Source: Roseovarius sp. (lineage in GTDB: Bacteria > Pseudomonadota > Alphaproteobacteria > Rhodobacterales > Rhodobacteraceae). Taken from it: 64,000 bases of DNA. Below, piece by piece: positions 4,350 to 64,000 of this stretch (position 1 is its first letter; every line of letters starts with the position of its first letter). A program made the translations under genes and the position numbers. The stretch spans positions 2,977 through 66,976 of the forward strand of contig JBLWYG010000002.1 of assembly GCA_048267045.1 (NCBI GenBank), written 5' to 3'. A model generated the notes under the pieces. That model was not told where the DNA came from and made no database searches. It worked only from the letters and a program-made list of their open reading frames with translations.

Positions 4350-5069
4350 ATGGCTGAATACAACACAATCCGGACGGCGGGCGGCACCCGCACCGCCCAG
4401 ATTGACGAGGGCCTGCGCGCCCACATGAACAAGGTCTACAGCACCATGTCCGTCGGCATGCTGCTAACGTTCCTGACCGCTTGGGCCGTCGGCAACAATG
4501 CCTACATGATGGAAAACCTGTTCACCGGTATGATGCGCTGGGTCGTCATGTTCGCGCCGCTGATCATGGTCTTTGCCTTCGGCGCCGTCATCAACAAACT
4601 GTCGGCCGCCGCTGCGCAGCTGTTCTTCTATGCGTTTGCGGCCGTAATGGGCGTATCCATCAGCTATATCTTTGTCATCTTCACCGACTTCTCGATCGCG
4701 CAGGTTTTCCTGACGACGTCGATCGCCTTCGCCGGTCTGTCCCTTTGGGGCTATACCACCAAGAAGGACATCTCGGGCTGGGGCAGCTTCCTGATCATGG
4801 GTGTGATCGGCCTGATCGTGGCGTCGATCGTGAACATCTTCCTCGGCTCTCCGGCGATCATGTTTGCAATCTCGATCATCGGTGTTCTGATTTTCGCGGG
4901 CCTGACGGCCTATGACACCCAGTCGATCAAGAACGAGTATCTGGCTCATGCGCAACATGGCGACAGCGAATGGCTGGGCAAGTCGGCGATCATGGGCGCT
5001 CTGCGCCTCTATCTCGACTTCATCAACATGTTCATGTTTCTGCTGCAACTGATGGGAAACAGAGAGTAA
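4350..5069 (+). CDS. Bax inhibitor-1/YccA family membrane protein
   Basis: IDEGLRAHMNKVY, GYTTKKDISGWG, AYDTQSIK, GALRLYLDFINMF; GGAGG RBS. Confidence 0.95.
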   Translation: MAEYNTIRTAGGTRTAQIDEGLRAHMNKVYSTMSVGMLLTFLTAWAVGNNAYMMENLFTGMMRWVVMFAPLIMVFAFGAVINKLSAAAAQLFFYAFAAVMGVSISYIFVIFTDFSIAQVFLTTSIAFAGLSLWGYTTKKDISGWGSFLIMGVIGLIVASIVNIFLGSPAIMFAISIIGVLIFAGLTAYDTQSIKNEYLAHAQHGDSEWLGKSAIMGALRLYLDFINMFMFLLQLMGNRE

Positions 5070-5097
5070 ATTTCACTCTGCACCTCCGCTGAATACC

Positions 5098-5137
5098 AAA
5101 GCCTGCCAGGCATCTGCCCTGGCAGGCTTTTCTTTTT
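5098..5137 (+). terminator. Intrinsic terminator after the BI-1 gene (possibly bidirectional)
   Basis: Perfect 13-bp stem AAAGCCTGCCAGG/CCTGGCAGGCTTT followed by a T run. Confidence 0.88.
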
Positions 5138-5220
5138 CCGGCGCGCGGTTTGCCAGCGCATTCCTCGATGGCATGGAAGGTCGCCCTCGCTTCGATCCCC
5201 AAAGCGTCGCTGCCAGCGCC

Positions 5221-6114
5221 TCAGTCGCTCATCGCGCGGGCAAGACGCCTTATCCGCAGCGCGCGGTTCAACTCGCCCCCAAAAATCAGGAGAAGCGCCG
5301 CAAGATACATGAAATATATCGCCGCGATGATACCCGCCATGCCCGCATAATAGCTGGCATAGGTGCCAAAACTGCCAACGTAGAACGAAAAGACGGCGGC
5401 CAGCAGCGTCCAGGCGATAGCGGTAAACACGACCCCCGGCCATATATTGGAAAATGTCGTCCGCCGGGCCGGCAGCAGAACATGCGCCGCAAATAACGCA
5501 GTCACGAAGATGGAGGCCGACGCCGGGAACCGGATCAAGCTGATCGTGACCGACGCGGGATCGAAATCCGGTATCAACGTGTGCAGCCACGATCCCGCCC
5601 GCGGCGCAAGAACCAGAAGATACCCGACCAGCACCAGCGCCAGGCTGGCAAGGATGACCATGGCGACCTGAACACCGTAAATCACGAAAACGGAACGTGT
5701 TTCGCGAATCCCGTAGGCGCGGTTCAGCCCGACGCGGGCGCCATCGACGCCGCCGACCGCGAACCAGATCGTCAGCAGGATACCGACGCTCAGAACGTCT
5801 CCGCGCGGCACCGTCATCACCTGCTCGACCTCGGAAACGATGGGATTGATCAGGTCCGAAGGCACAATGGCGATCAGGAAATCGACCAGATCATTGGCCA
5901 TCGACCGGTCGCCGATGAACGCTGTCATCGCGCTGGTAAAGATCAGAAACGGAAAAAGCGCCAGCAGGGCGCGGAAGGCGACATTGCCCGCCAATCCAAA
6001 GGCATCATCGCTCCACAGCCTCAGAATCGCTTCGCGCATGACCGCCCGCGCGACGCGCCATCCCGTTGCATGAAACAGATCCTCGGGGTTTTCACTGAGC
6101 ACGCCGTGGGTCAT
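5221..6114 (-). CDS. YihY/virulence factor BrkB family membrane protein
   Basis: AGNVAFRALLALFP, GLNRAYG, WPGVVF, YYAGMAGII..YFMY..FGGELN; start uncertain (6114-6156). Confidence 0.88.
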   Translation of the reverse strand: MTHGVLSENPEDLFHATGWRVARAVMREAILRLWSDDAFGLAGNVAFRALLALFPFLIFTSAMTAFIGDRSMANDLVDFLIAIVPSDLINPIVSEVEQVMTVPRGDVLSVGILLTIWFAVGGVDGARVGLNRAYGIRETRSVFVIYGVQVAMVILASLALVLVGYLLVLAPRAGSWLHTLIPDFDPASVTISLIRFPASASIFVTALFAAHVLLPARRTTFSNIWPGVVFTAIAWTLLAAVFSFYVGSFGTYASYYAGMAGIIAAIYFMYLAALLLIFGGELNRALRIRRLARAMSD

Positions 6115-52071: not shown

Positions 52072-52833
52072 TCAGGTGACCGGAGTGGGCGCGATATCGT
52101 CCGCACTGCCTTCGCCGCGCCGGACCAGATGACGCAGATAGCGGCGTTCGAACCAGCGGAAGGCCCATGTGATGCACAAAACGATGAGGAAGTAGAGCAC
52201 CGCCGCCGTGATGAACCCCTCATAGGCCAGATAATAGCGCCCATTCAGCCAGCGTCCGACCCCCAGAATATCCTGAAGCGTGATCGTGCTGGCGATGACC
52301 GATCCGTGCAGCATGAAGATGACCTCGTTCGAATAGGCCGGGATCGCGCGGCGGAAGGCCGAGGGCAGAATAATCCGCCGCATGCGGCTGCGATAGGAAT
52401 GACCGGTCGCGATTGCGGCCTCCACCTCGCCGGTTGGCGTGTCGGCGATGGCACCGCGCAGCAGTTCGGTGGTGTAGGCTGCGGTGTTCAGGGTGAACGC
52501 AATCAGCGCGCACCACCAGGCCGACGACAGGACCGGATCCCACAACCAGCTGTTGCGAATGACGTCAAACTGCCCGACGCCGTAGTAGATCAGATAGGTC
52601 TGAACCAGCAACGGCGTGCCACGAAAGACATAGGTATAGACCTGCACCAACGGGTTCAGCACGGCGTGCCCGGACGCGCGGGCGATCGCCATAGGAATGG
52701 CCAGCAGCCCGCCCAAGAGCAGCGCAAGAAACGTAAGGTTCAGCGTGGTCCATACGCCATAAAGGAAGCGGTCAAAATTATCGGCGATCAGCGCAATGTC
52801 GAGCGGGATATAGGACAGCAAGGTTTCCATCAT
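52072..52833 (-). CDS. Basic amino acid/opine ABC permease (HisM/OccM-like)
   Basis: FRGTPLLVQ, NTAAYTTE, GEVEAA, YSNEVIFMLH. Confidence 0.92.
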   Translation of the reverse strand: MMETLLSYIPLDIALIADNFDRFLYGVWTTLNLTFLALLLGGLLAIPMAIARASGHAVLNPLVQVYTYVFRGTPLLVQTYLIYYGVGQFDVIRNSWLWDPVLSSAWWCALIAFTLNTAAYTTELLRGAIADTPTGEVEAAIATGHSYRSRMRRIILPSAFRRAIPAYSNEVIFMLHGSVIASTITLQDILGVGRWLNGRYYLAYEGFITAAVLYFLIVLCITWAFRWFERRYLRHLVRRGEGSADDIAPTPVT

Positions 52834-53522
52834 CCGGCCCTCACCACACCGCGGCTGTAATGCCGTTCCAGCGCACGTAGCGCCACGTCCGAGACGGCCG
52901 TCAACATCAGGTAAATGACAAAGGCCGCCGCCATGAAGGTGAACAACTGCCCGGTGGAGCGGCCCGCGGTAAACGCGTTATAGACCAGATCCTGAAGGCC
53001 GATGACTGAAACCAGTGCGGTCGTCTTCAACTGCACCAGCCAGTTGTTGGTGAACCCCGGCAACGCATAGCGCACCATCTGGGGCCAGATGATGTGTCGA
53101 AATATCAGCGACTTGGGCATGCCACAGCTGATCCCTGCCTCGATCTGGCCGCGCGGGATCGCCATGATTGCGCCGCGGAACGTTTCGGTGAAATAGGCGC
53201 CGAAGATCACGCCGATCGTCCCGGCGCCCGCCGCGAACTGGCTGACTTCGACGTAGCCCCACAGCCCGGTCATCACGCCGATATTGTTCAGCGTCACCTG
53301 ACCGCCGTAAAACACCAGCAGGATCAGCACGAGGTCGGGCACACCGCGTACGACAGTCGTGTATGCTCTGGCCAGACGCTGGGCCAGACGGCTGGAGGAC
53401 AGTTTTGCCCATGCTCCCAGCAACCCGAACACCAGCGCGAAAACAAGCGACGTCAGCGCCAGCTTGATCGTCATGAGCGTGCCGTCAATCAACTGGGATT
53501 GGTATTCCAGGATGAGGTCCAT
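52830..53522 (-). CDS. Basic amino acid/opine ABC permease (HisQ/OccQ-like)
   Basis: RGVPDLV, GAYFTETFRGA, GQIEAG, ALPGFTNNW. Confidence 0.92.
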   Translation of the reverse strand: MDLILEYQSQLIDGTLMTIKLALTSLVFALVFGLLGAWAKLSSSRLAQRLARAYTTVVRGVPDLVLILLVFYGGQVTLNNIGVMTGLWGYVEVSQFAAGAGTIGVIFGAYFTETFRGAIMAIPRGQIEAGISCGMPKSLIFRHIIWPQMVRYALPGFTNNWLVQLKTTALVSVIGLQDLVYNAFTAGRSTGQLFTFMAAAFVIYLMLTAVSDVALRALERHYSRGVVRAG

Positions 53523-53589
53523 CAGGCGTCCTCTGTTTGTGGGTCAGGGCGGCGGGAGATGCCGCCCCGACTGTTCGGTTCAGATCGGA

Positions 53590-54381
53590 TCATTCGCCCG
53601 CGGGGCGTCCGCCATAGATGTCGAACTCGAAATACTTGTCGTTGATTTCGGCGTAGGTGCCATCTTCGCGGATTGCCAGGATCGCGGCGCTCAACTCGTC
53701 GCGCAGTTCTTCCTCGCCCTTGCGCACGGCGATGCCGACGCCTTCGCCGTAGCATTCGACGTCGAGGTGATCACCGCCAAGAAATTCGTAATCCGCCCCT
53801 GCATCCGTATCGAGAAAGCCCTCCTTGGCGATCAGGCTGTCTGACAATTGCACGTCCACACGGCCCAGCGCGAGGTCACGGAACACTTCGTCCTGCGATC
53901 CGTAGAGAATGATTTCCGAGTCAGGGAACATCTTTTCAGCATAGCACTGGTGCGTCGCGCCGCGCTGGACGCCTATGCGTTTTCCAGCCAGCCCTTCCGG
54001 CGTGCCTTCGAAATCGGCATCCTTGGGGGCCACCACGCGGGCGGGTGTCTGATAATACTTGTCCGTGAAATCGATCTGGCGCTTGCGCTCTTCGGTGATC
54101 GACATGGATGCGACGATGGCGTCGAACTTCTGCGCCTTGAGCGCGGGGATCATGCCGTCCCACTCCTGCTGCACCAGTTCGCATTCACGCTGCATTTCGG
54201 CGCAAAGTGCCTTGGCGATGTCAATGTCGAACCCGACAAGCGTGCCATCCGATGATGTGGACGAAAACGGAGGATATGCGCCCTCAACGCCTATGCGAAG
54301 CGTGTCTTGCGCGGCAGCGGGGATCGCAATCGCGGCAAGAGCGGCGGTAAGGGCAGTGGTCAAAACAGTTCTACGGATCAT
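53590..54381 (-). CDS. Lys/Arg/Orn/opine-type ABC substrate-binding protein
   Basis: Signal peptide; EGAYPPF, GFDIDIAKALC..M..EC, WDGMIPAL, SMSITEER. Confidence 0.92.
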   Translation of the reverse strand: MIRRTVLTTALTAALAAIAIPAAAQDTLRIGVEGAYPPFSSTSSDGTLVGFDIDIAKALCAEMQRECELVQQEWDGMIPALKAQKFDAIVASMSITEERKRQIDFTDKYYQTPARVVAPKDADFEGTPEGLAGKRIGVQRGATHQCYAEKMFPDSEIILYGSQDEVFRDLALGRVDVQLSDSLIAKEGFLDTDAGADYEFLGGDHLDVECYGEGVGIAVRKGEEELRDELSAAILAIREDGTYAEINDKYFEFDIYGGRPAGE

Positions 54382-54409
54382 TTCTTGGGTCTCTCCTGTT
54401 GGTGGTTCG

Positions 54410-55180
54410 TTAATTCATGCGCGATAGAAACGCCTGAAATTCGGTGGTTTGCGGGTTGGAAAACAGCTGCGTGGGCGGGCCTTCTTCGCAAACCTCGCCC
54501 TTGTGCAGAAAAACGGTCTTGGTCGACACGTCACGGGCAAAGCCCATTTCATGCGTGACGACCAGCATCGTGCGACCCTCATCGGCCAGATCACGCATCA
54601 CGCCCAGCACCTCGCCCACAAGTTCGGGATCGAGCGCGGACGTAGGTTCGTCAAACAGCATCACATCGGGGTCCATCGCCAGTGCCCGCGCAATGGCGAC
54701 GCGCTGCTGCTGACCACCCGACAGATGTGCCGGGTAGTAATCCGCGCGATCCGACAGACCGACCTTTGCCAAGAGGGCCTTGGCCTTTTCGCGCGCTTCG
54801 GCCTTGGGCGTTTTCTGCACGTAAAGCGGGCCTTCCAGCACATTTTCCATCACGGTCATGTGTGACCAGAGGTTAAAGCCCTGAAACACCATTGCAAGGC
54901 GCGCGCGCATCCTTTCGACCTGCCGGATGTCCTCGGGGACCGTGTCGCCATGACGGTTGGTTGTCATGCGCATCTTCTCCCCGGCCAGCCAGATGTCGCC
55001 GGAATTCGGGGTCTCTAGCAGGTTGATGCAGCGCAGAAATGTGCTTTTGCCGGATCCGGACGCGCCGAGGATGGCGATGACTTCGCCTTTCTGCGCTTCC
55101 ATTGACACGCCCTTGATGACTTCGTGGCTGCCGAAGCTTTTGTGCAGATCCTCGATCTTCAATGCTGCGGGATCGCTCAT
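54410..55180 (-). CDS. ABC ATP-binding protein (HisP/OccP-like)
   Basis: GASGSGKS, FQGFNLWSHM, LSGGQQQR, FDEPTSALDPE. Confidence 0.94.
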   Translation of the reverse strand: MSDPAALKIEDLHKSFGSHEVIKGVSMEAQKGEVIAILGASGSGKSTFLRCINLLETPNSGDIWLAGEKMRMTTNRHGDTVPEDIRQVERMRARLAMVFQGFNLWSHMTVMENVLEGPLYVQKTPKAEAREKAKALLAKVGLSDRADYYPAHLSGGQQQRVAIARALAMDPDVMLFDEPTSALDPELVGEVLGVMRDLADEGRTMLVVTHEMGFARDVSTKTVFLHKGEVCEEGPPTQLFSNPQTTEFQAFLSRMN

Positions 55181-56568
55181 GCTGTCTCCTCCTGATCGTC
55201 GGTCAACGCCGCCAACTCGCCCAGCGTGATCGGCTTGATGGGCGAACGGGCCCTCGGCGGGGCGATCATGCCCATGCGCGATGTCTCGCCCGCGCCCAGA
55301 ATTCCACGCACGCTTGCGTCACACATGCGACCTTGGCACGGCCCCATGCCGACGCGCAACGATGTTTTGATCTGACGGTGTCCTTGCGCGCCCTCGCCCA
55401 TGCCCTGGCGGATTGCACCGGCCGTCACCTCCTCGCAGCGGCAGATGATCGTCTGGTCCGCGGGCGACAGAATTTCGGCCGGGGGCGGATAAGCGGCGTC
55501 CAGAAAAGGGCGGATGGCGCGGGCGCGAAACAGCACCGCGCGGGCGGTTGCCGCGCGCTGGTCGCGGGCATCGGCGCTGATGCGCCCCGCCGCCCGCAAG
55601 ATATCAAGAGCGGCCAGTTCCCCGGAAGCGGCGGCTGCCTCGGCGCCGCCAATGCCCGCCCCGTCGCCCGCGACATAGAGGTCGGCGCGATCAGTGGCGC
55701 CCCAAGTGTCGTGAACCGGCTGAAAGGCAACCTGCGCCGCATTCCATTCGTGCCTGATACCTGCCGCACGGCTCATGTGGGTGGACGGGATCACGCCCTG
55801 ATGGGTCAACAGCAGGGCGCAGTCCAGCGTCTCGCGCTTGCCGCCGGAGCGGAATGAAAAGCGGATCGTGCCGCTTGCGTCGGTCGTCGCCCCGAAGCCC
55901 GAGGCGGCGGTGTAGCGCCGCACTCCCGCCTTGCGGATCTTCGCGACGAGGCCAAGCCCCTTGAGCAGCGTTCGCGCTGCAAAAGCCGCCTTCGGTAGAT
56001 AGCGCAGAGCGCCCAGCATCATGCGAGGTGTCTGGGTCTCGACCAGCGCCTTCGGCGGGCATCCGGCATCAATCATCTGCGCCGCGACCAGATACAGCAG
56101 TGGGCCGGAGCCCGCCAGCACCGCGTCACGCGGCAACATGCCGGCGGTCTTCATCAATATCTGCGCGGCCCCTGCCGTCATCACACCGGGCAGCGTCCAT
56201 CCCGGAAACGGCACGGGCCGCTCCTGCGCGCCGCCTGCCAGCAGGACATGCGGCGCTGACGTGCCGCGGCTGACCCCATTGCGGGACCACATGACGCGCG
56301 GTCCGGCATCCAGACGCCAGACCGTCGCACCAAATTGCGTCGTCACGCCAGGATGGTCCAGCGCATCGACCAGCCGCGATCCCGCCGCATAGTCCCTGCC
56401 CAGCCAGCCCCGCGTGTTCCGGTTCTGGCCGACATTGCGATAGATCTGACCGCCGGGCTGTGCCTGCTCGTCCAGCACCAGCGTTTGCAGACCGCCATGG
56501 GCCGCCACCCGCGCCGCAGACATGCCGGCAGGGCCGGCGCCGATGATGATTAGATCAAATTCAGGCAT
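55177..56568 (-). CDS. Opine oxidase/dehydrogenase A-type subunit (OoxA/OdhA family, BFD-like C-terminus)
   Basis: IIGAGPAG, PGGQIYR, ERPVPFPGWTLPGVM, ICRCEEVT, GMGPCQGRMC. Confidence 0.88.
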   Translation of the reverse strand: MPEFDLIIIGAGPAGMSAARVAAHGGLQTLVLDEQAQPGGQIYRNVGQNRNTRGWLGRDYAAGSRLVDALDHPGVTTQFGATVWRLDAGPRVMWSRNGVSRGTSAPHVLLAGGAQERPVPFPGWTLPGVMTAGAAQILMKTAGMLPRDAVLAGSGPLLYLVAAQMIDAGCPPKALVETQTPRMMLGALRYLPKAAFAARTLLKGLGLVAKIRKAGVRRYTAASGFGATTDASGTIRFSFRSGGKRETLDCALLLTHQGVIPSTHMSRAAGIRHEWNAAQVAFQPVHDTWGATDRADLYVAGDGAGIGGAEAAAASGELAALDILRAAGRISADARDQRAATARAVLFRARAIRPFLDAAYPPPAEILSPADQTIICRCEEVTAGAIRQGMGEGAQGHRQIKTSLRVGMGPCQGRMCDASVRGILGAGETSRMGMIAPPRARSPIKPITLGELAALTDDQEETA

Positions 56569-56878
56569 CCGTGCCACTGCCCAGTCTTCGCAGCCCTGTC
56601 TGGCGACTGACCACCATTCCGCTGCGCACCTGCGTCATGCAGGCCTGGACGTTTGGAACGCCGTCAATCTCTACCAGACAATCGAAACAGACGCCCATCA
56701 TGCAAAAGGCCGTCCGCCCGCTCCCCTTGACCGTTTGCCGGGTATATGCGCCGGAGTGGGCCAGAAGCGCCGCCGCAACAGATGTTCCCTCGGGCGCCGT
56801 GACTGTTTCGCCCTCATAGCGGAACTGCACGGTTGCGCCCGTCTCAGGCGGCGCTCGAAAGCGCGAAGCGATTTTCAT
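56561..56878 (-). CDS. [2Fe-2S] small subunit (OdhC/HcnA-like)
   Basis: FCMMGVCFDCLVEIDG..VQAC; GGAGG RBS. Confidence 0.9.
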   Translation of the reverse strand: MKIASRFRAPPETGATVQFRYEGETVTAPEGTSVAAALLAHSGAYTRQTVKGSGRTAFCMMGVCFDCLVEIDGVPNVQACMTQVRSGMVVSRQTGLRRLGSGTDA

Positions 56879-57968
56879 CGAATGCCTCCAGGTCAGGTGC
56901 CGCAGATGTGCCATCTATCCAGTCCGCTACGACAGAGGCATGCAGCGATGCAAGCGTGATACCGCTGTGGCAGGTGACGAGATACGCGCCGGGATGCCGG
57001 GCAGAGCGCGCATAGACCGGATACCCGTCGGGCGACAGAACACGCAGTGCGCCCCAGGCCCGCACGACGCGCACAGTCGCCAAAGCCGGATAGACGGCGA
57101 CCGCGTGACGTGCCAGTTTCGTCATCATGTCCAGCGTTTCGCCGTCGTCCAGACCTACATCGGCCTTGGTCCCGCCGATCTGCACGCCGCCCTCGTCCAC
57201 CTGCCTGATCGTCCCAGACAGAAACGGCAACCGGTCGCGCAATTTCTCGGTAATAAGCACCTCGCCGCGCTGAGGGCGAATCCGTGTCGCAAAGCCCAGA
57301 TCAGGCGCCAACGATGTCGCGCCCAACCCGGCGCAAAGAATGACCTTGTCTGCACTGACTGTTTCGCCGCCGACCATCGACAGATCGAAGCCGCCCCCTG
57401 TGACCGGCGCGATACGCGCAACCTGCGCGCCCATGGTCACGCGCCCACCAGAGGCCGTCACGGCGCGTCGCACCGCGCGCAGAAATCGCAACGGATTCAC
57501 CTGCCCGTCCTGCGGCGAAAAGCTGGCCCCGACGACATGCGGCCCGATGCCCGGGATCTGCGCCCGCAGATCATCGCCGCTCAGCATCTCATGACTGATC
57601 CGGTTGCCCAGATGCCGCTGCTGCTGCGTCAACATTCCGGCAAATTCGTCCATCTCCGCCGCGTCCGTGAAAAACTCGAAACCGCCGGGCTGATCCAGTG
57701 CAACATCAATGCCGGACAAATCGGCCAACTTGCGGGCAAACTCCGGCCATGCGGCCTGCGCGTCATGTGTCCATCTGGCGTAAGGCGCGAAATTCCAGCC
57801 CTTGCCCTGCCCCCAGACCAGCCCAAAATTGCCTTGGGATGCGCGCGCATCACTGTCCGCGCCGTCCAGCACATGCACCCTGCGACCCGCCAGAAGCAGC
57901 CCCAGTGCCACCGACAGCCCCACAACGCCGCCGCCGACAATGATGATTTCAGGGTCCGTGCGATCCAT
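56844..57968 (-). CDS. Opine oxidase/dehydrogenase B-type FAD subunit (DAO family)
   Basis: VGGGVVG, ASQGNFGLVW, DGQVNP, WGALRVLSPDG.P, CHSGITL. Confidence 0.88.
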   Translation of the reverse strand: MDRTDPEIIIVGGGVVGLSVALGLLLAGRRVHVLDGADSDARASQGNFGLVWGQGKGWNFAPYARWTHDAQAAWPEFARKLADLSGIDVALDQPGGFEFFTDAAEMDEFAGMLTQQQRHLGNRISHEMLSGDDLRAQIPGIGPHVVGASFSPQDGQVNPLRFLRAVRRAVTASGGRVTMGAQVARIAPVTGGGFDLSMVGGETVSADKVILCAGLGATSLAPDLGFATRIRPQRGEVLITEKLRDRLPFLSGTIRQVDEGGVQIGGTKADVGLDDGETLDMMTKLARHAVAVYPALATVRVVRAWGALRVLSPDGYPVYARSARHPGAYLVTCHSGITLASLHASVVADWIDGTSAAPDLEAFDENRFALSSAA

Positions 57969-58034
57969 GCGATTCCTCCCCGGGCAATGTCGCATCTTTC
58001 CTTTTATATGAATAATCGTGATATTTGTTAAACT

Positions 58035-58051
58035 CATTCCTGTTGGATATG
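58035..58051. promoter_or_regulatory. Candidate LysR box between lysR and the oxidase operon
   Basis: CAT-N11-ATG dyad (T-N11-A) in an AT-rich intergenic region. Confidence 0.4.
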
Positions 58052-58059
58052 TATTTGCC

Positions 58060-58968
58060 ATGATTGCGCGCCTGACCCACCGCCAGATCGAGGCCTTTCG
58101 GGCCGTGATCGAAACCGGCAAGATCACCGCGGCAGCCGGGGTGCTGGGCACCACGCAACCCTCCATCAGCAAGTTGATTGCCGATCTGGAACAGGCAGCC
58201 GGATTCGATCTGTTCGAGCGGCGCGGCCGCCTGGTTGCGCCGACGCCCGAGGCGCTGGCCCTCTATGAGGAGGTCGAGCGATCCTTCGTCGGCATGTCCG
58301 AGATTTCGCGCGTCATCGAGGATATCCGGGATTTCCGCAAGGGCAGCCTGCTGATCGCCGGAATGCCGGCGCTGGCGCTGAAACTGCTGCCCGACGTCAT
58401 CGCGCAATTCATCGCCGAAGAACCCGGCATCACCGTGTCCCTGCGCACCCGCAGTTCGCAGGCCGTTTTGCAGCATCTCAGCTCGCAGCAATTCGATCTT
58501 GGCTTTGCGGCGCTGGAAAAGGACCATCCGGCAGTCATTCGCAAGCCGATCTTTACGGCGCCCATGCTCGCGGTTCTGCCGATTGGCCATGAGCTTGAAT
58601 GCAAGGATGTTCTGGAGCCTGCCGACCTTGACCAGCAACCGTTCATCGCGCTCGGGGCCGAAATCGGGACGCGATCCGAGACTGACCTGTTCCTGTCGGC
58701 GGCTGGCGCACGCCCCCGGATTGTGGCCGAAGCGCAGCTGTCCGCGTCCATTTGCGAGCTGGTGGCGGCCGGTGCCGGTGTCTCCATCGTCGAGCCGGTC
58801 ACAGCCACGCATTTCGCGAATGCAGGGCGTATCACTGTGCGTCCGCTCGTGCCGGAACAGCCGTTCCGCTATGATTTACTGTTGCCGGCCCTGCGAAACC
58901 CATCCCGCGTCGCGCGCCGCTTTCTGGAGCTCGTCGAGGACCGCTTTGCAATGGTCCTCGTGACGTGA
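58060..58968 (+). CDS. LysR-family regulator (OccR/NocR/LysR-like)
   Basis: LTHRQIEAF, TQPSISKLIADLE, FERRGR, PTPEA. Confidence 0.93.
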   Translation: MIARLTHRQIEAFRAVIETGKITAAAGVLGTTQPSISKLIADLEQAAGFDLFERRGRLVAPTPEALALYEEVERSFVGMSEISRVIEDIRDFRKGSLLIAGMPALALKLLPDVIAQFIAEEPGITVSLRTRSSQAVLQHLSSQQFDLGFAALEKDHPAVIRKPIFTAPMLAVLPIGHELECKDVLEPADLDQQPFIALGAEIGTRSETDLFLSAAGARPRIVAEAQLSASICELVAAGAGVSIVEPVTATHFANAGRITVRPLVPEQPFRYDLLLPALRNPSRVARRFLELVEDRFAMVLVT

Positions 58969-59112
58969 GAGGGATGTTTCTTGCCACCGCCTGTCGCCTC
59001 TGCTTACGCGATCCGGTGGTCTTGCGAGGATGCGGCGTTTTTCGGGGCGGCTCTTGCTGTCATTGCAAAAGCAGCTGAATCCGGCGCATGGTGGGCGAAA
59101 AGGGAGGCGCCG

Positions 59113-59922
59113 TTGAAGATCGCGCTTTGGCAAACCAAGCCGCAGCATGACACAAGCCAGGCCCTGGCCGCGCTGGATCGGATGGCGCAGCGTGCCCGGA
59201 CCGAGGGTGCCGATCTGATCGTGACCCCGGAAATGGTGTTGGGCGGCTACAATGTCGGCCCGGACAGGTGCAAGGCACTGGCCGCGTCGGCGGGCGAGCT
59301 GACGGAGGCGCTGAAATCCATCGCCAAAACGCATGACATCGCGCTGGTCGTGGGCATCGCCCTGCCGGGGCCGGACGGCCCATATAACGGCGCCATCGTG
59401 CTGGACGCGGCGGGGGCCGAGCGGCATCGCTATCACAAGACCCATCTCTACGGCGATGTTGATCGAACCCAATTCGCTGCAGGCGGGGCGCTGTCTGGGG
59501 TGTTCGAGCTGAACGGCTGGTCTATCGGCCTCGCGATTTGTTACGACATCGAATTTCCCGAAGTCGCCCGCGCCCTTGCCTTGCAAGGGGCCGACGTCAT
59601 GCTGGTGCCAACCGCAAACATGATACCGTTTGACAGTGTCGCCACCCGGCTGGTCCCCGCCCGCGCCGAGGAAAACGCGATCTACGTTGCCTACGCCAAC
59701 TACGTCGGTACCGAAGGGGACTTCGACTACGGCGGCCTGTCCTGTATCTGCGGCCCGGACGGCAACGACCTTGCCCGCGCCCGCCGGACTGCCCCTGATT
59801 TGCTGTTCGCCACTCTGGATCACGACGCGCTCCGGGCCAGCCGCGACCTGCAAAACCATCTCGCTGACCGCCGTCCGGATTTATACGGACGCCCCAATGT
59901 TGAAGGTCTCACCGATGAATAG
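59113..59922 (+). CDS. davA: Carbon-nitrogen hydrolase, DavA (5-aminovaleramidase)-like
   Basis: E-K-C triad: TPEM, YHKTHLYG, ICYDIEFPE; RAEEN..Y..YAN; TTG start with GGGAGG RBS; overlaps davB. Confidence 0.78.
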   Translation: MKIALWQTKPQHDTSQALAALDRMAQRARTEGADLIVTPEMVLGGYNVGPDRCKALAASAGELTEALKSIAKTHDIALVVGIALPGPDGPYNGAIVLDAAGAERHRYHKTHLYGDVDRTQFAAGGALSGVFELNGWSIGLAICYDIEFPEVARALALQGADVMLVPTANMIPFDSVATRLVPARAEENAIYVAYANYVGTEGDFDYGGLSCICGPDGNDLARARRTAPDLLFATLDHDALRASRDLQNHLADRRPDLYGRPNVEGLTDE

Positions 59923-61561
59923 AGTCTCAGTCTTCGGGCCGGATTTTCCGTTTGCCTATGATGATTGGATCACCCACCCCAAGGGGCTGGGCCATCTGCC
60001 GGACATCGCCCATGGCGCCAAGGTGGCGATCATCGGCTCGGGCGCGGCGGGGATCATCGCGGGATACGAGCTGATGAAACTGGGCGTTCAGCCGGTCGTG
60101 TTCGAGGCGGGCCAGTTCGGCGGGCGCTTGCGTTCACAACGCTTTGAGGGTGCCGATGGCGTCATCGCGGAACTGGGCGGCATGCGCTTTCCCGTCTCCT
60201 CCACCGGGTTTTACACCTATGTCGACAAGCTGGGCATCCAGAGCCAGCCGTTCCCCAATCCGCTGACCCCAGCGGCAGGTTCGACCGTTGTCGATCTGCT
60301 GGGCAAAACCCACTATGCCGAAACGCTGGCCGACCTGCCGCCGCTGTTTCACGAAGTCGCCCAAGCCTATGACAAGGCGCTGGAGGACGGCGCAAATTTC
60401 ACCGCGCTGAAACAAGCGATCCGCGACCGGGACAACGCCCGGATCAAGGAAATCTGGAACCCCATCGTCGAGCAATGGGACGAAAGGACCTTCTATGATT
60501 TCGTCGCCTCCTCGGACGCTTTTCAGGCGCTGTCCTTTCATCACCGCGAAGTCTTTGGTCAGGTCGGGTTCGGCACCGGCGGCTGGGATTCCGATTTCCC
60601 CAATTCCATGCTGGAAATCCTGCGCGTCAATGTGACCGAATGTGACGACCATCAACGCTACATGGTTGGCGGGGTCGGTCAGGTTCCGCACAAGCTGTGG
60701 GAACATGCCGCCGACAATATCGTTCACTGGCCCGCGGGCACCACTCTGTCCAAGCTGAACGGCGGAGCCACCCGCTCGGGGGCGACCCGGATCAGGCGGC
60801 AGGGCGACAAATTCGAAGTGACCGATCAGTGGAAGCGGGTCGAGACATTCGACGCCGTGCTTGTCACCTGCCAGAGCCACATGCTGTCCACCGTGATCGA
60901 GACGGAAGAGACCCTCTTTGCCCACGATCTGTGGATGGCGCTGGACCGGACCCGCTATATGCAATCGGCCAAGACATTCGTGATGGTCGACCGCCCCTTC
61001 TGGAAGGACAAGGATCCAAAAACCGGCCGTGATGTCATGTCGATGACGCTGACCGACCGCATGACGCGCGGCACCTATCTGTTCGACAATGGACCGGGTA
61101 AGCCCTCGGTCATCTGCCTCAGCTATTCATGGATGACCGACGCGCTCAAGGTGCTGCCCCTGCCGGTGGAGAAACGCGTGGAACTGGCTCTGTCGTCACT
61201 GGCGAACATATATCCCGACGTGGATATCCGGTCGCATATCCTGGGCGACCCGATCACGGTCAGCTGGGAAGATGACCCCAATTTCCTGGGTGCATTCAAG
61301 GGTGCGCTGCCGGGGCATTACCGCTACAATCACCGGATGTTCGGTCACTTCATGCAAGACGACCTGCCGCCGCACGAACGCGGGATCTTCATGGCGGGCG
61401 ACGGCGTCAGCTGGACACCCGCCTGGGTCGAAGGGGCGGTTCAGACCTCGCTCAACGCAGTTGCCGGAATCATCCGCCATCTGGGCGGCGGATCTCATTC
61501 TGAAAACCCATCACCCTGCGATGCCTATGCCGAATGGGGGCCGGTCAAACTGCCGGACTGA
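59915..61561 (+). CDS. davB: Lysine 2-monooxygenase DavB-like flavin amine oxidase
   Basis: FGPDFPFAYDDW, AELGGMRFPVSS, VGFGTGGWDSDFPNSMLEI, MSMTLTDRMTRGTYL, SWTPAWVEGAVQTSLNAV; closely follows Pseudomonas DavB as I recall it. Confidence 0.85.
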   Translation: MNRVSVFGPDFPFAYDDWITHPKGLGHLPDIAHGAKVAIIGSGAAGIIAGYELMKLGVQPVVFEAGQFGGRLRSQRFEGADGVIAELGGMRFPVSSTGFYTYVDKLGIQSQPFPNPLTPAAGSTVVDLLGKTHYAETLADLPPLFHEVAQAYDKALEDGANFTALKQAIRDRDNARIKEIWNPIVEQWDERTFYDFVASSDAFQALSFHHREVFGQVGFGTGGWDSDFPNSMLEILRVNVTECDDHQRYMVGGVGQVPHKLWEHAADNIVHWPAGTTLSKLNGGATRSGATRIRRQGDKFEVTDQWKRVETFDAVLVTCQSHMLSTVIETEETLFAHDLWMALDRTRYMQSAKTFVMVDRPFWKDKDPKTGRDVMSMTLTDRMTRGTYLFDNGPGKPSVICLSYSWMTDALKVLPLPVEKRVELALSSLANIYPDVDIRSHILGDPITVSWEDDPNFLGAFKGALPGHYRYNHRMFGHFMQDDLPPHERGIFMAGDGVSWTPAWVEGAVQTSLNAVAGIIRHLGGGSHSENPSPCDAYAEWGPVKLPD

Positions 61562-61641: not shown

Positions 61642-62451
61642 TCAACGCTGGGACATCTTCTTGCTCCGGTTCATTTGCAAGGCGGCAACGATGATCCCGA
61701 GCGACACCAGACCGATAATGATAGTGGCCAGCGCATTCACATCCGGGCTGACGCCCAGCCGGACCTTGGAAAAGATCACCATCGGCAGGGTCGAGGCACC
61801 GGGGCCCGAGACAAAGCTGGCAACCACCAGATCGTCCAGGCTGAGCGTGAAGGCCAGCAGCCAGCCCGACATCAGCGCCGGCGCGATCACCGGCAGCGTC
61901 ACGTCGAAAAATACCCGCACCGGGCGCGCGCCCAGATCCAGCGCCGCCTCTTCGATGGACAGGTCCATGTCCACCAGCCGCGACTGGATGATGACGGCCG
62001 CATAAGCCGCGCCAAAGGTCGAATGAGCGATGATGATGGTGAGCAGACCGCGCCCGCCGGGCCAGCCGATGACGTTCTCCATCGCCACGAACATCAGCAG
62101 AAGGGACAGGCCGATGATGACCTCGGGCATGACCAGCGGCGCGGTTATCATCATGCTCAGCAGCGTCTTGCTGCGGAAGCGCCGGAACCGGATCAGCACG
62201 AACGACGCCACGGTTCCGATCACGATTGACAGGGTCGCGCTGGCCAGGGCGATGCGCAGGCTGACCCAGGCAGCGTCCAGGATTTGCGGATCGCGGAACA
62301 ACTCGCCATACCACTTGGTCGAGAACCCGCCCCAGACCGTCACCAGCCGACTTTTATTGAAGCTGAAGATCACGAGCGACAGGATCGGTGCATAAAGGAA
62401 GACAAACCCAAGGATACCGACGATGGTGAGGAACCAGGATTTACGTTTCAT
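61642..62451 (-). CDS. potI: Polyamine ABC permease PotI/PotC
   Basis: FNKSRLVTVWGGFSTKWY, PLVMPEVIIG, EAALDLGA, SLDDLV. Confidence 0.9.
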   Translation of the reverse strand: MKRKSWFLTIVGILGFVFLYAPILSLVIFSFNKSRLVTVWGGFSTKWYGELFRDPQILDAAWVSLRIALASATLSIVIGTVASFVLIRFRRFRSKTLLSMMITAPLVMPEVIIGLSLLLMFVAMENVIGWPGGRGLLTIIIAHSTFGAAYAAVIIQSRLVDMDLSIEEAALDLGARPVRVFFDVTLPVIAPALMSGWLLAFTLSLDDLVVASFVSGPGASTLPMVIFSKVRLGVSPDVNALATIIIGLVSLGIIVAALQMNRSKKMSQR

Positions 62452-63380
62452 CAGCGTTCCCCCCCACCTGCTGCCTGCGCGCGGCGCAGCAGCATGATCG
62501 GGATGACCAGCACGAACAGCATCACGATGGCCACGGACGACGCGATGGGCCAATCGCGGTTCGAGAAAAATTCGTTCCACAGGACCTGTCCGATCATCAG
62601 CGTATCAGGCCCACCCAGAAGTGCCGGGATCACGAACTCGCCTACAGCAGGAATGAACACCAGCATGCAGCCGGCAATGATCCCGCTCATCGACAGCGGT
62701 AGGGTAACGGTAAAGAACGTGACGACGGGGCGTGCGCCCAGATCCGCGGACGCCTCGAAATACGCATCGTCCAGCTTCACCAGATTGGCATAAAGCGGCA
62801 GGATCATGAATGGCAGGTAAGTATATACGATTCCTACATAAACCGCGAAATCCGTCTGTAACATCACCAGTGGCTGGTCGATGATCCCGGCGCTCAGCAG
62901 GAAGTTGTTGATGATGCCGTTGCCCTTGAGAAATCCGATCCACGCATAGACGCGCAGCAGGAAGGACGTCCAGAACGGCAAGATGACCAGCATCAGCAGC
63001 AGGTTGCGCCGGTCTGGCGCCGACCGCGCGATCAGATAGGCCATCGGATATCCGATCAGCAGCGCGATGATCGTGGCAATACCAGCTATTTTGGCCGACC
63101 CCAGATAGGCTGCGACATATAGCGGATCGTCTATCAAAAACAGGTAGTTGCCAAAATTCAGGTTTATCGTGAAAAACCCATCGACCCACTCCGTGATCGG
63201 CAGATACGGGGGCCGGGCGATGGCGGCTTCGGACACCGATATTTTCGCAACCACCAGGAACGGGATCAGGAAAAACATCAACAGCCAGATGGTCGGGATG
63301 GCGATGACCAACAAACGCCCCTTGAGGCCCATGCGCCCCAAAACCGTCCCTATCCGCGATCCCAGCGGCAGGCTGCTCAT
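62451..63380 (-). CDS. potH: Polyamine ABC permease PotH/PotB
   Basis: LPFWTSFLLRVYAW, YLPFMILPLY, EASADLGA, FIPAVGEFVIP; TGATG overlap. Confidence 0.9.
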   Translation of the reverse strand: MSSLPLGSRIGTVLGRMGLKGRLLVIAIPTIWLLMFFLIPFLVVAKISVSEAAIARPPYLPITEWVDGFFTINLNFGNYLFLIDDPLYVAAYLGSAKIAGIATIIALLIGYPMAYLIARSAPDRRNLLLMLVILPFWTSFLLRVYAWIGFLKGNGIINNFLLSAGIIDQPLVMLQTDFAVYVGIVYTYLPFMILPLYANLVKLDDAYFEASADLGARPVVTFFTVTLPLSMSGIIAGCMLVFIPAVGEFVIPALLGGPDTLMIGQVLWNEFFSNRDWPIASSVAIVMLFVLVIPIMLLRRAQAAGGGER

Positions 63381-64000
63381 GATGTCACCACGATTCCGGC
63401 GCTGCCGGCCCAGCCCAGATTCACCCGATCCCCATAGGTCAGCGCGCTTTCTTCGGAGCGGGTCAGGTTCGATTGGCTGACTCGCAGGCGTTTGCCGCTG
63501 TCCAGCCGCACCTGATAGACTGACGAATTGCCCATATAGGCAATTTCGTCGATGGTGCCGCTCAGCTTGTTGCGCAGATCGCCCAGATCGTCCTTGCTGA
63601 TCTGCACCTTTTCCGGGCGCACTGCGACGGCAACCTTCTGGCCGATCACGCCGCTGATGCCATGCGGCACGTAAATGTCCATGCCCGCATCGGGCGAGCG
63701 CACCATGACATGATCCTCGCCATCTTCGGTGATCCGGCCTTCGAAGATGTTGACGGAACCTATGAAGTCGGCCACGAACCGGTTTTGCGGGAATTCGTAG
63801 ATCTCGCGCGGTGTGCCGACCTGTACGATTTCACCAGCGGTCATGACACCGATCCGGCTGGACAGGGTCATCGCCTCTTCCTGGTCGTGGGTGACGACGA
63901 CAAAGGTCACGCCCAGGCTCTCTTGGATCTTTATCAATTCGAACTGGGTTTCCTCGCGCAGCTTCTTGTCCAGCGCGCCCAAAGGTTCATCCAGCATCAG
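63377..64000 (-). CDS. potG: Polyamine ABC ATP-binding protein PotG/PotA, C-terminal part (runs off window end)
   Basis: LDEPLGALDKKLRE, VTHDQEEA, FVADFIG, TOBE-like tail. Confidence 0.9.
   Translation of the reverse strand: MMLDEPLGALDKKLREETQFELIKIQESLGVTFVVVTHDQEEAMTLSSRIGVMTAGEIVQVGTPREIYEFPQNRFVADFIGSVNIFEGRITEDGEDHVMVRSPDAGMDIYVPHGISGVIGQKVAVAVRPEKVQISKDDLGDLRNKLSGTIDEIAYMGNSSVYQVRLDSGKRLRVSQSNLTRSEESALTYGDRVNLGWAGSAGIVVTS

Follow-up and report, generated by a model that had tools for sequence, protein, structure and literature searches.

What does a marine bacterium consume when the genes for an opine-oxidase-type enzyme and an ATP-binding cassette (ABC) importer stand back-to-back with davA and davB, a pair of the type that degrades lysine? 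This question is raised by positions 52072–61561 of a 64 000-nt stretch of Roseovarius sp. DNA (the window, meaning the whole stretch analysed), which lies on contig C2 of a 2.95 Mb genome of 96 contigs whose nearest relatives are Roseovarius species. The existing annotation of the genes names generic oxidoreductases only. A first-pass annotation had described oxidase subunits in the order B-C-A and a His/Occ-type ABC importer in one leftward operon, with a divergent LysR gene followed by davA and davB; gene content, order and strands are indeed as it described them. It had also suggested that the locus salvages a conjugate from which lysine is released. Judging from open reading frame (ORF) coordinates, Pfam and NCBIfam profile scores, PDB matches and pairwise identities, on which our gene calls rest, we favour with moderate confidence a broader interpretation, in which this part of the chromosome corresponds, in a marine bacterium of the Roseovarius type, to occ and noc, the opine-catabolism regions of Ti plasmids.

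An opine-dehydrogenase-type operon and its predicted regulator

The oxidase is encoded on the minus strand by oxB (56844..57968; DAO 191 bits, with GGAGG 7 nt before the ATG), for a beta (catalytic) subunit like OoxB, NoxB and OdhB; oxC (56561..56914; Fer2_4 96 bits), for a 117-aa [2Fe-2S] protein like the gamma subunit OdhC; and oxA (55177..56577; Pyr_redox_2, Fer2_BFD and SO_alpha_A3), for an alpha subunit like OoxA, NoxA and OdhA. OxB is 39–40% identical to OoxB and NoxB, and OxA is 43% identical to OoxA of pTi and to NoxA, while OxC shares 49% and 34% identity with the unnamed 2Fe-2S genes that lie between ooxB and ooxA and between noxB and noxA, respectively. Oox and Nox are only 39–40% identical to each other (39% for OoxB and NoxB), so the window's oxidase is as near to either (39–49%) as they are to one another. 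Ti-plasmid OoxA and NoxA are among its best plasmid matches outside the roseobacters. Its best PDB matches are glycine oxidases only; no solved structure of an Odh-type enzyme was found.

Type 1 opine dehydrogenases carry an N-terminal GxGxxG in the beta and alpha subunits, an R-x-W that serves flavin mononucleotide (FMN) in beta, C-X4-C-X2-C-X11-12-C in gamma and CxC...CxxxxC in alpha, and in the Odh genes, which run B-C-A, the gamma gene overlaps (Watanabe et al., 2015; PMC4575208). Every one of these motifs is present in the window, aligned with those of OoxB/C/A and NoxB/C/A: GGGVVG, R-A-W and CHSGITLA in OxB, C-X4-C-X2-C-X12-C in OxC, and conserved GAGPAG, CRCEE and GMGPCQGRxC in OxA. The order beta-gamma-alpha with an overlapping gamma gene is found in pTiAch5 and pTi1D1460 as well; in the window the overlap of oxB with oxC is 71 nt, which shrinks to 35 nt if translation of oxC begins at the ATG at 56878, as it may, and that of oxC with oxA is 17 nt. 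Membership of OxBCA in the Oox/Nox/Odh subfamily of opine dehydrogenases is well supported by these alignments but not closed.

The importer genes follow on the same strand. An ATPase like HisP and NocP (54410..55180; NCBIfam HisP 358 bits) overlaps the oxA stop by 4 nt, and is followed by a periplasmic substrate-binding protein (SBP) of the lysine/arginine/ornithine-opine family, cluster F of the periplasmic binding proteins (53590..54381; TIGR01096 258 bits, with a cut-off of 256), by a permease like HisQ and NocQ (52830..53522; NCBIfam HisQ 245 bits, Pfam BPD_transp_1) and, as the final gene, by a permease like HisM and NocM (52072..52833; NCBIfam HisM 214 bits, Pfam BPD_transp_1) that overlaps the preceding permease gene by 4 nt. 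The junctions in this run of seven minus-strand genes are overlaps of 4 to 71 nt or gaps of 28 and 67 nt, which makes a single operon plausible. To the left of 52072 the DNA has nothing in common with that of related loci.

On the opposite strand, the LysR-family regulator (58060..58968; HTH_1 and LysR_substrate) shares 39% identity with OccR (150 bits) and 24% with NocR. It is divergent from an operon that joins a PAAT-family ABC importer to the oxidase, the arrangement by which an occ/noc-type region is recognized, and each part of the locus has a homologue in the occ or noc regions of Agrobacterium Ti plasmids. Identities, motifs and gene order all agree with the earlier view that the oxidase is of the opine-oxidase type and that the importer and regulator are occ/noc-like.

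The 91-bp control region between lysR and oxB (57969..58059) contains two boxes, CATATCCAACAGGAATGA (58034–58051) and ACGATTATTCATAT (58006–58019). In 15 orthologous loci this spacer is 87–94 bp long and keeps both boxes, which can be written as CATATC-N7-GAATGA and ACGATTATTCnTATG, irrespective of whether the locus carries davAB or RidA and arginase. The first box coincides with the first of two T-N11-A dyads that had been pointed out at 58035–58051 and 59054–59068. Both dyads are where they were placed, and the first is probably a real operator because the length of the spacer and the two boxes are conserved in the 15 loci. The second is conserved in one half only: in five loci the right half, TTGCAA, which resembles a –35 element, is kept and the left half is not. 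As patterns, neither occurs in the window above the chance level of shuffled sequence (CAT-N11-ATG, 23 seen and 24.8 expected; TTGC-N7-GCAA, three seen and 1.7 expected).

A scan of species genomes revealed about 23 orthologous Rhodobacterales loci that combine the LysR gene, the oxidase genes (BCA) and the importer genes in the order P-T-Q-M (OxB 63–87% identical), and one more was found on a plasmid of Leisingera caerulea. LysR orthologues 76–91% identical stand beside BCA and the ABC genes in both types of locus. RidA closes the operon in 13 of the approximately 23 loci, accompanied by arginase in five of them, and arginase alone is present in one more. The Ti plasmids offer a parallel, since ooxA is followed by RidA and ocd (the ornithine cyclodeaminase gene), and noxA by arginase and ocd. 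In the Roseovarius clade, by comparison, which comprises four genomes and a metagenome contig (loci L003, L004, L008, L022 and L080) together with the window, davA and davB follow lysR, and RidA and arginase are absent. Cultured strains with this locus include Roseovarius dicentrarchi YLY04, Roseovarius sp. M141 and Pro17, and R. arcticus. Loci with both RidA and arginase are basal in the OxB tree; its inner clade is not resolved and gives no date for the change from arginase to davAB. Of 401 genera of the family, about 23 have a second group of OxB paralogues (47–52% identical); one in-frame stop is seen in many of these matches, as the search ran past the end of the gene into the overlapping gamma gene, and one such locus (L028, Litoreibacter) has RidA.

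The binding pocket and the amino acid released

The ligand class can be approached through the SBP, whose best PDB matches are HisJ and LAO (about 210–220 bits), with partial matches to NocT and OccJ. When aligned with the residues tabulated by Vigouroux et al. (PMC5740067), its pocket consists of E33, Y36, W74, A91, S94, R99, A114, Q139, T143, H144 and D181. The half that would hold the side chain is the full arginine-holding set of OccJ and NocT (Glu, Tyr, Trp, Ala and Gln); the LAO residues at these positions are Asp, Tyr, Phe, Ser and Leu. On the keto-acid side there is an Ala at the Asn111/Met117 position, a His corresponding to NocT His170 and an Asp corresponding to LAO Asp161. LAO Gln122 is replaced by a His in the window's SBP; in LAO, the Q122A change alone permits octopine binding (PMC5740067). 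The pocket looks like one for an arginine-type side chain with room near the alpha-nitrogen, although it fits neither of the published opine signatures. Its contact residues are identical in all roseobacter orthologues, whether their neighbours are davAB, RidA or arginase, and almost identical in the Gammaproteobacteria described below. This invariance suggests that all of these loci import the same class of ligand.

DavB and DavA would act on the amino acid that is set free. DavB (davB, 59897..61561, plus strand, overlapping the end of davA) is a basic L-amino-acid 2-monooxygenase of the lysine 2-monooxygenase type; it scores 884 bits, at about 67–70% identity, against the L-Lys oxidase/monooxygenase of Pseudomonas sp. 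AIU 813 (PDB 3WE0), and keeps all ten substrate contacts (R102, W235, D238, C254, Q258, Y416, W418, F473, A515 and W516), Asp238 of this enzyme (L-AAO/MOG) being the contact for the cationic side chain. DavA (davA, 59113..59922, plus strand; CN_hydrolase 160 bits) is a CN-hydrolase omega-amidase of the 5-aminopentanamidase type in which the Glu-Lys-Cys triad can be read (TPEM, YHKTHL and AICYD), and is 72–88% identical among the Roseovarius loci. Its gene starts with a TTG at 59113, 6 nt past GGGAGG, and this start is kept in the relatives.

In uncultured marine Gammaproteobacteria (L158, L161, L162 and L148) the same functions are assembled in a single tight operon, P-T-Q-M-B-C-A-ureohydrolase-davA-davB. 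The ureohydrolase is of the agmatinase family; DavB is 63%, BCA about 45% and the SBP 65% identical to those of the window, and the DavB contacts differ by A515G only. Variants exist: one operon stops after the ureohydrolase, and in another DavB directly follows BCA. We also considered locus L157, in which the ABC genes, the ureohydrolase and davB are intact without BCA, as proof that free arginine is transported, and rejected it; at 4720–6050 BCA and davA have been deleted, and the remaining 30 codons of the A gene mark the locus, which also retains the first davA codons, as a deletion derivative. Directly upstream of the operon in L161 and L162 (4762–5640) and in L158 (465–1355) lies a fructosamine-kinase-family gene (PF03881) that overlaps the end of a pseudouridine-synthase gene; its position may be due to chance or may hint at a link to glycated or Amadori-type amines.

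The first-pass annotation had reasoned that the substrate releases L-lysine, naming lysopine and the N-epsilon-linked saccharopine, carboxymethyl-lysine and carboxyethyl-lysine, and that DavB and DavA then yield 5-aminovalerate. The resemblance of DavB to a solved enzyme of the lysine 2-monooxygenase type speaks for this, as do the family-III CoA-transferases that recur near DavB, including beside the nearest DavB relative outside the clade (L057, 91% identical), and that suggest a route from lysine to glutarate. Furthermore, OccJ binds lysopine at 0.14 µM (PMC5740067), the opine dehydrogenases listed for marine invertebrates include one for lysopine (PMC11084901), and the locus has neither arginase nor ocd. 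Release of lysine is nevertheless not implied by the locus. The SBP pocket is the same in relatives linked to arginase, with a side-chain half that is the guanidinium-binding set of OccJ and NocT, and the ureohydrolase of the gammaproteobacterial operon would be useless with lysine. Because arginase and ureohydrolase need a guanidino compound, and the loci appear to share one ligand class, the evidence departs from a lysine-only substrate. Nor is the DavB type confined to lysine: the monooxygenase kcat/Km values of the characterized reference enzyme are 74, 200 and 24 per second per mM for lysine, ornithine and arginine, respectively (PMC5832979). The N-epsilon-linked candidates fare worse, since the distal part of the pocket suits a free cationic terminus, which its Glu would bind, and an added carboxylate would find no partner there; saccharopine, carboxymethyl-lysine and carboxyethyl-lysine should fit poorly. 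Salvage of a lysine conjugate as the function of the locus is consequently doubtful in our estimation, although possible.

The statement that arginase and ocd are missing holds for the window and its contig but not for the genome, another point against a substrate restricted to lysine. On contig C43 (19438–22357) arginase, a 313-aa unidentified ORF and ocd stand in a row with an apparent divergent regulator of the AsnC/Lrp type; these genes are the genome's own route from arginine to proline and are unlinked to the locus. RidA is encoded on contig C34, and GabT and GabD are also present in the genome. On contig C3 (44162–48972) a ureohydrolase of the agmatinase/guanidinobutyrase family, 67% identical to that of the gammaproteobacterial operon, stands ahead of a PotD-type ABC importer, a unit that probably serves the uptake and hydrolysis of guanidino compounds.

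The most likely substrate is an octopine-family compound, a basic amino acid carrying an N2-carboxyalkyl group. The strongest candidate for the core substrate is an opine built on arginine, for example octopine, and lysopine and octopinic acid are plausible co-substrates. A more specific proposal, which we make only tentatively, is that DavB and DavA in these marine loci act on arginine freed from octopine-type opines, so that, with a guanidinobutyrase, arginine would be converted via 4-guanidinobutyramide and 4-guanidinobutyrate to 4-aminobutyrate and urea. The ureohydrolase called for by this proposal is encoded within the operon in the Gammaproteobacteria and by the contig C3 gene in the Roseovarius genome.

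Probable coupling of the oxidase to davAB

The functional tie between BCA and davAB that the first reading of the locus had assumed gains support from its recurrence. In Marivita sp. S0852 (L012) BCA (OxB 74% identical) is followed by a convergent davB-davA pair, with a different LysR (29%) and a different ABC system, and in the marine Gammaproteobacteria BCA and davAB belong to one operon. The Marivita and Roseovarius arrangements may derive from one ancestral juxtaposition and not from two independent events. Since each gene set is confined to a few percent of genomes, repeated adjacency, once within a single operon, is very unlikely to have arisen by chance. On balance, we judge that the coupling is probably functional.

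Across nearly all DavB loci the davA gene adjoins davB, and the two form a stable unit. The stability of this pair in varied contexts suggests that it serves as a plug-in module for the disposal of a basic amino acid released by other enzymes. DavB is found in 11 plasmid records, none of them an Agrobacterium or Rhizobium plasmid. In one case, a plasmid of Sulfitobacter alexandrii (NZ_CP018080.1; L163 1–8656), davA and davB close an operon for a dipeptide ABC importer and an amidohydrolase that also contains an Asp/Glu-racemase-family gene, a DHDPS-family gene and a short-chain dehydrogenase/reductase gene; here again davAB is appended to genes whose products probably release a basic amino acid from a conjugated form.

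These elements can be combined into a pathway whose substrate class, order of steps and regulation are predictions from gene families, conserved synteny and operator. The OccR-like regulator would bind the conserved 91-bp divergent control region and, on sensing the substrate, activate the seven-gene operon. The importer, with its genes in the NocP-T-Q-M order, would take up an N2-(1-carboxyalkyl) basic L-amino acid, that is, an opine of the octopine family, whose secondary amine would be oxidized by the heterotrimeric OxB-OxC-OxA dehydrogenase with flavin adenine dinucleotide, FMN and [2Fe-2S] as cofactors. Hydrolysis of the imine would yield a 2-keto acid and the free basic L-amino acid. DavB would convert the latter by oxidative decarboxylation into an omega-amino (or omega-guanidino) amide, and DavA would hydrolyse the amide; unlinked enzymes of the GabT and GabD type would complete the route, which for an arginine product would also need the contig C3 ureohydrolase. 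The davAB module would thus stand in place of the RidA and arginase (or ocd) of the relatives and Ti plasmids.

Several observations weigh against this picture. The SBP residues E-Y-W-S-R-Q-A-T-H-D agree with seven of the ten positions of the OccJ octopine signature (E30-Y33-W71-S91-R96-Q159-N111-T163-A164-N202), including the complete arginine part, and with one of the four positions of the NocT keto-acid signature (G97-M117-H170-S207) (PMC5740067), so that neither signature is complete. D181 corresponds to Asp161 of LAO, which the authors of that study judged incompatible with octopine, whereas OccJ and NocT have Asn or Ser. An SBP annotated as an opine binder, SAR11_1210, is a picomolar arginine binder (PMC11485210), and the retained Asp161 together with the incomplete signatures suggests that free arginine, lysine or ornithine could likewise be the main ligand here. 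As to davAB, among 401 genus representatives of the family an oxB orthologue is present in ten genera and DavB in 22, with both only in the genome studied here; this near-absence of co-occurrence suggests that davAB is dispensable for the system. DavB relatives as close as 91–93% identical (L057 and L082) have no BCA neighbour. Finally, no second copy of the lysR/oxB operator box is present in the spacer between lysR and davA, which leaves co-regulation of davAB with oxB unproven.

That spacer (58969..59112, 144 bp) contains the second dyad and a conserved block, TGTCATTGCAAA...GCATGGTGG...AAAAGGA; in the five loci that keep TTGCAA, the downstream GCATGGTGG block, the ribosome-binding site and the davA start codon are also conserved. 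No significant hairpin indicative of a terminator or structured RNA was found between lysR and davA (z = 0.15), and a scan of this region for consensus promoters and terminators was uninformative. davAB may have its own promoter or may be read through from lysR, and its control by the LysR protein is only a possibility.

It could be argued from these features that LysR-BCA-ABC is an ordinary octopine-type system and davAB an independent lysine-catabolic pair, with its own promoter and signal, that lies beside it by coincidence. The lack of phyletic co-occurrence, a spacer that offers a –35-like element in place of an operator box, and the presence of DavAB in many unrelated contexts are what such an arrangement would produce. 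The adjacency in three layouts, including a packed operon in another bacterial class, is not, and we consider coincidence unlikely. Less probable still is that the locus is not an opine system at all and that an importer for free basic amino acids (L or D) is joined to a heteromeric dehydrogenase of another secondary or primary amine, such as D-arginine, D-lysine or N-alkylated basic amino acids: the SBP is nearer overall to HisJ and LAO (about 215 bits) than to NocT and OccJ and keeps Asp161, the SAR11 precedent is apt, RidA in the relatives would suit imino-acid products, and D-hydroxyproline dehydrogenase, proline dehydrogenase and hydrogen cyanide synthase belong to the same wider enzyme family (PMC4575208), but arginase, ureohydrolase and DavB use L-amino acids or their products, the one-operon versions need BCA to supply an L-amino acid, a true occ operon likewise has RidA after ooxA, and the oxidase is as similar to Oox and Nox as these are to each other.

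Positions 52072–61561 contain no gene resembling an NAD(P)H opine synthase, a search that did not extend to the rest of the genome. Beyond the right end of davB, on the other strand, genes from 61642–64000 onwards to about position 71300 of contig C2 (L079 4600–11340) encode a potFGHI-type polyamine importer, followed by a flavin adenine dinucleotide-dependent oxidase with weak AmaA/PuuB-like matches, a glutamine-synthetase-like gene of the gamma-glutamylputrescine-synthetase type and a divergent GntR regulator. This flank looks like a gamma-glutamylation route for polyamines lying beside the lysine/arginine genes.

Significance and comparison with known systems

To our knowledge, opine catabolism has hardly been described outside crown-gall and rhizosphere bacteria. 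In the literature searched we found no link between davAB and an opine oxidase, and nothing useful on growth of roseobacters on octopine. The loci described here show that many marine Rhodobacterales, as well as uncultured Gammaproteobacteria, possess a conserved, regulated system like occ and noc. If the predicted function is correct, the carriers would consume compounds of the octopine family, anaerobic end products of marine invertebrates. The swappable module, moreover, records how such loci were assembled: Agrobacterium has arginase/ocd, most roseobacters have RidA either alone or together with arginase, Roseovarius and Marivita have davAB, and the Gammaproteobacteria have a ureohydrolase with davAB. 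A testable hypothesis for the role of DavB in vivo, with arginine or ornithine, follows from this. If arginine is the amino acid concerned, genes would be assigned to an old pathway that has been poorly linked to genes, and a widespread bacterial sink for marine-invertebrate opines would be defined.

One close comparison is with occ of octopine-type Ti plasmids, which in pTiAch5 runs occR / occQMPT-ooxB-[2Fe-2S]-ooxA-RidA-ocd. Shared with it are the divergent LysR (39% identical), the PAAT-family ABC importer and the B-C-A block (39–49%), and relatives of the window add RidA after the operon. In contrast to occ, the window's locus is chromosomal and marine, has the dehydrogenase first and then P-T-Q-M, lacks RidA and ocd, and has davA and davB after the regulator; its SBP has D181 for Asn202, H144 for Ala164 and A114 for Asn111 of OccJ. 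With noc of nopaline-type Ti plasmids (nocPTQM, nocR, noxB-[2Fe-2S]-noxA-arginase-ocd) it has in common the P-T-Q-M order, the oxidase block and the His at NocT His170, and in relatives L001, L017, L018 and L021 arginase directly follows the operon. It differs from noc in that its regulator resembles OccR rather than NocR (24%), three of the four NocT keto-acid residues are absent, and arginase and ocd are missing from the locus.

Compared by published description only, OdhABC of Pseudomonas putida KT2440 and Bradyrhizobium japonicum (PMC4575208) shares with the window's oxidase the B-C-A order, the overlapping gamma gene, the cofactor motifs and a similar level of identity to Oox and Nox (about 40%), but only the window's oxidase is linked to davAB. 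DavB and DavA resemble their Pseudomonas counterparts (3WE0, 5YB6-8) in identity (67–70%), in the ten contacts and in the translational coupling of a CN-hydrolase gene upstream of davB; the Pseudomonas davBA genes are accompanied by davT and davD, whereas the window's pair has an opine-type dehydrogenase and importer as its neighbours.

The arginine 2-monooxygenase pathway proceeds through EC 1.13.12.1, then 4-guanidinobutyramidase and then guanidinobutyrase. The window's locus itself lacks a ureohydrolase, the 67% identical homologue being on contig C3, but the gammaproteobacterial operons do resemble this pathway, in that a DavB-type monooxygenase, an amidase and a ureohydrolase of the agmatinase/guanidinobutyrase family are all encoded after BCA.

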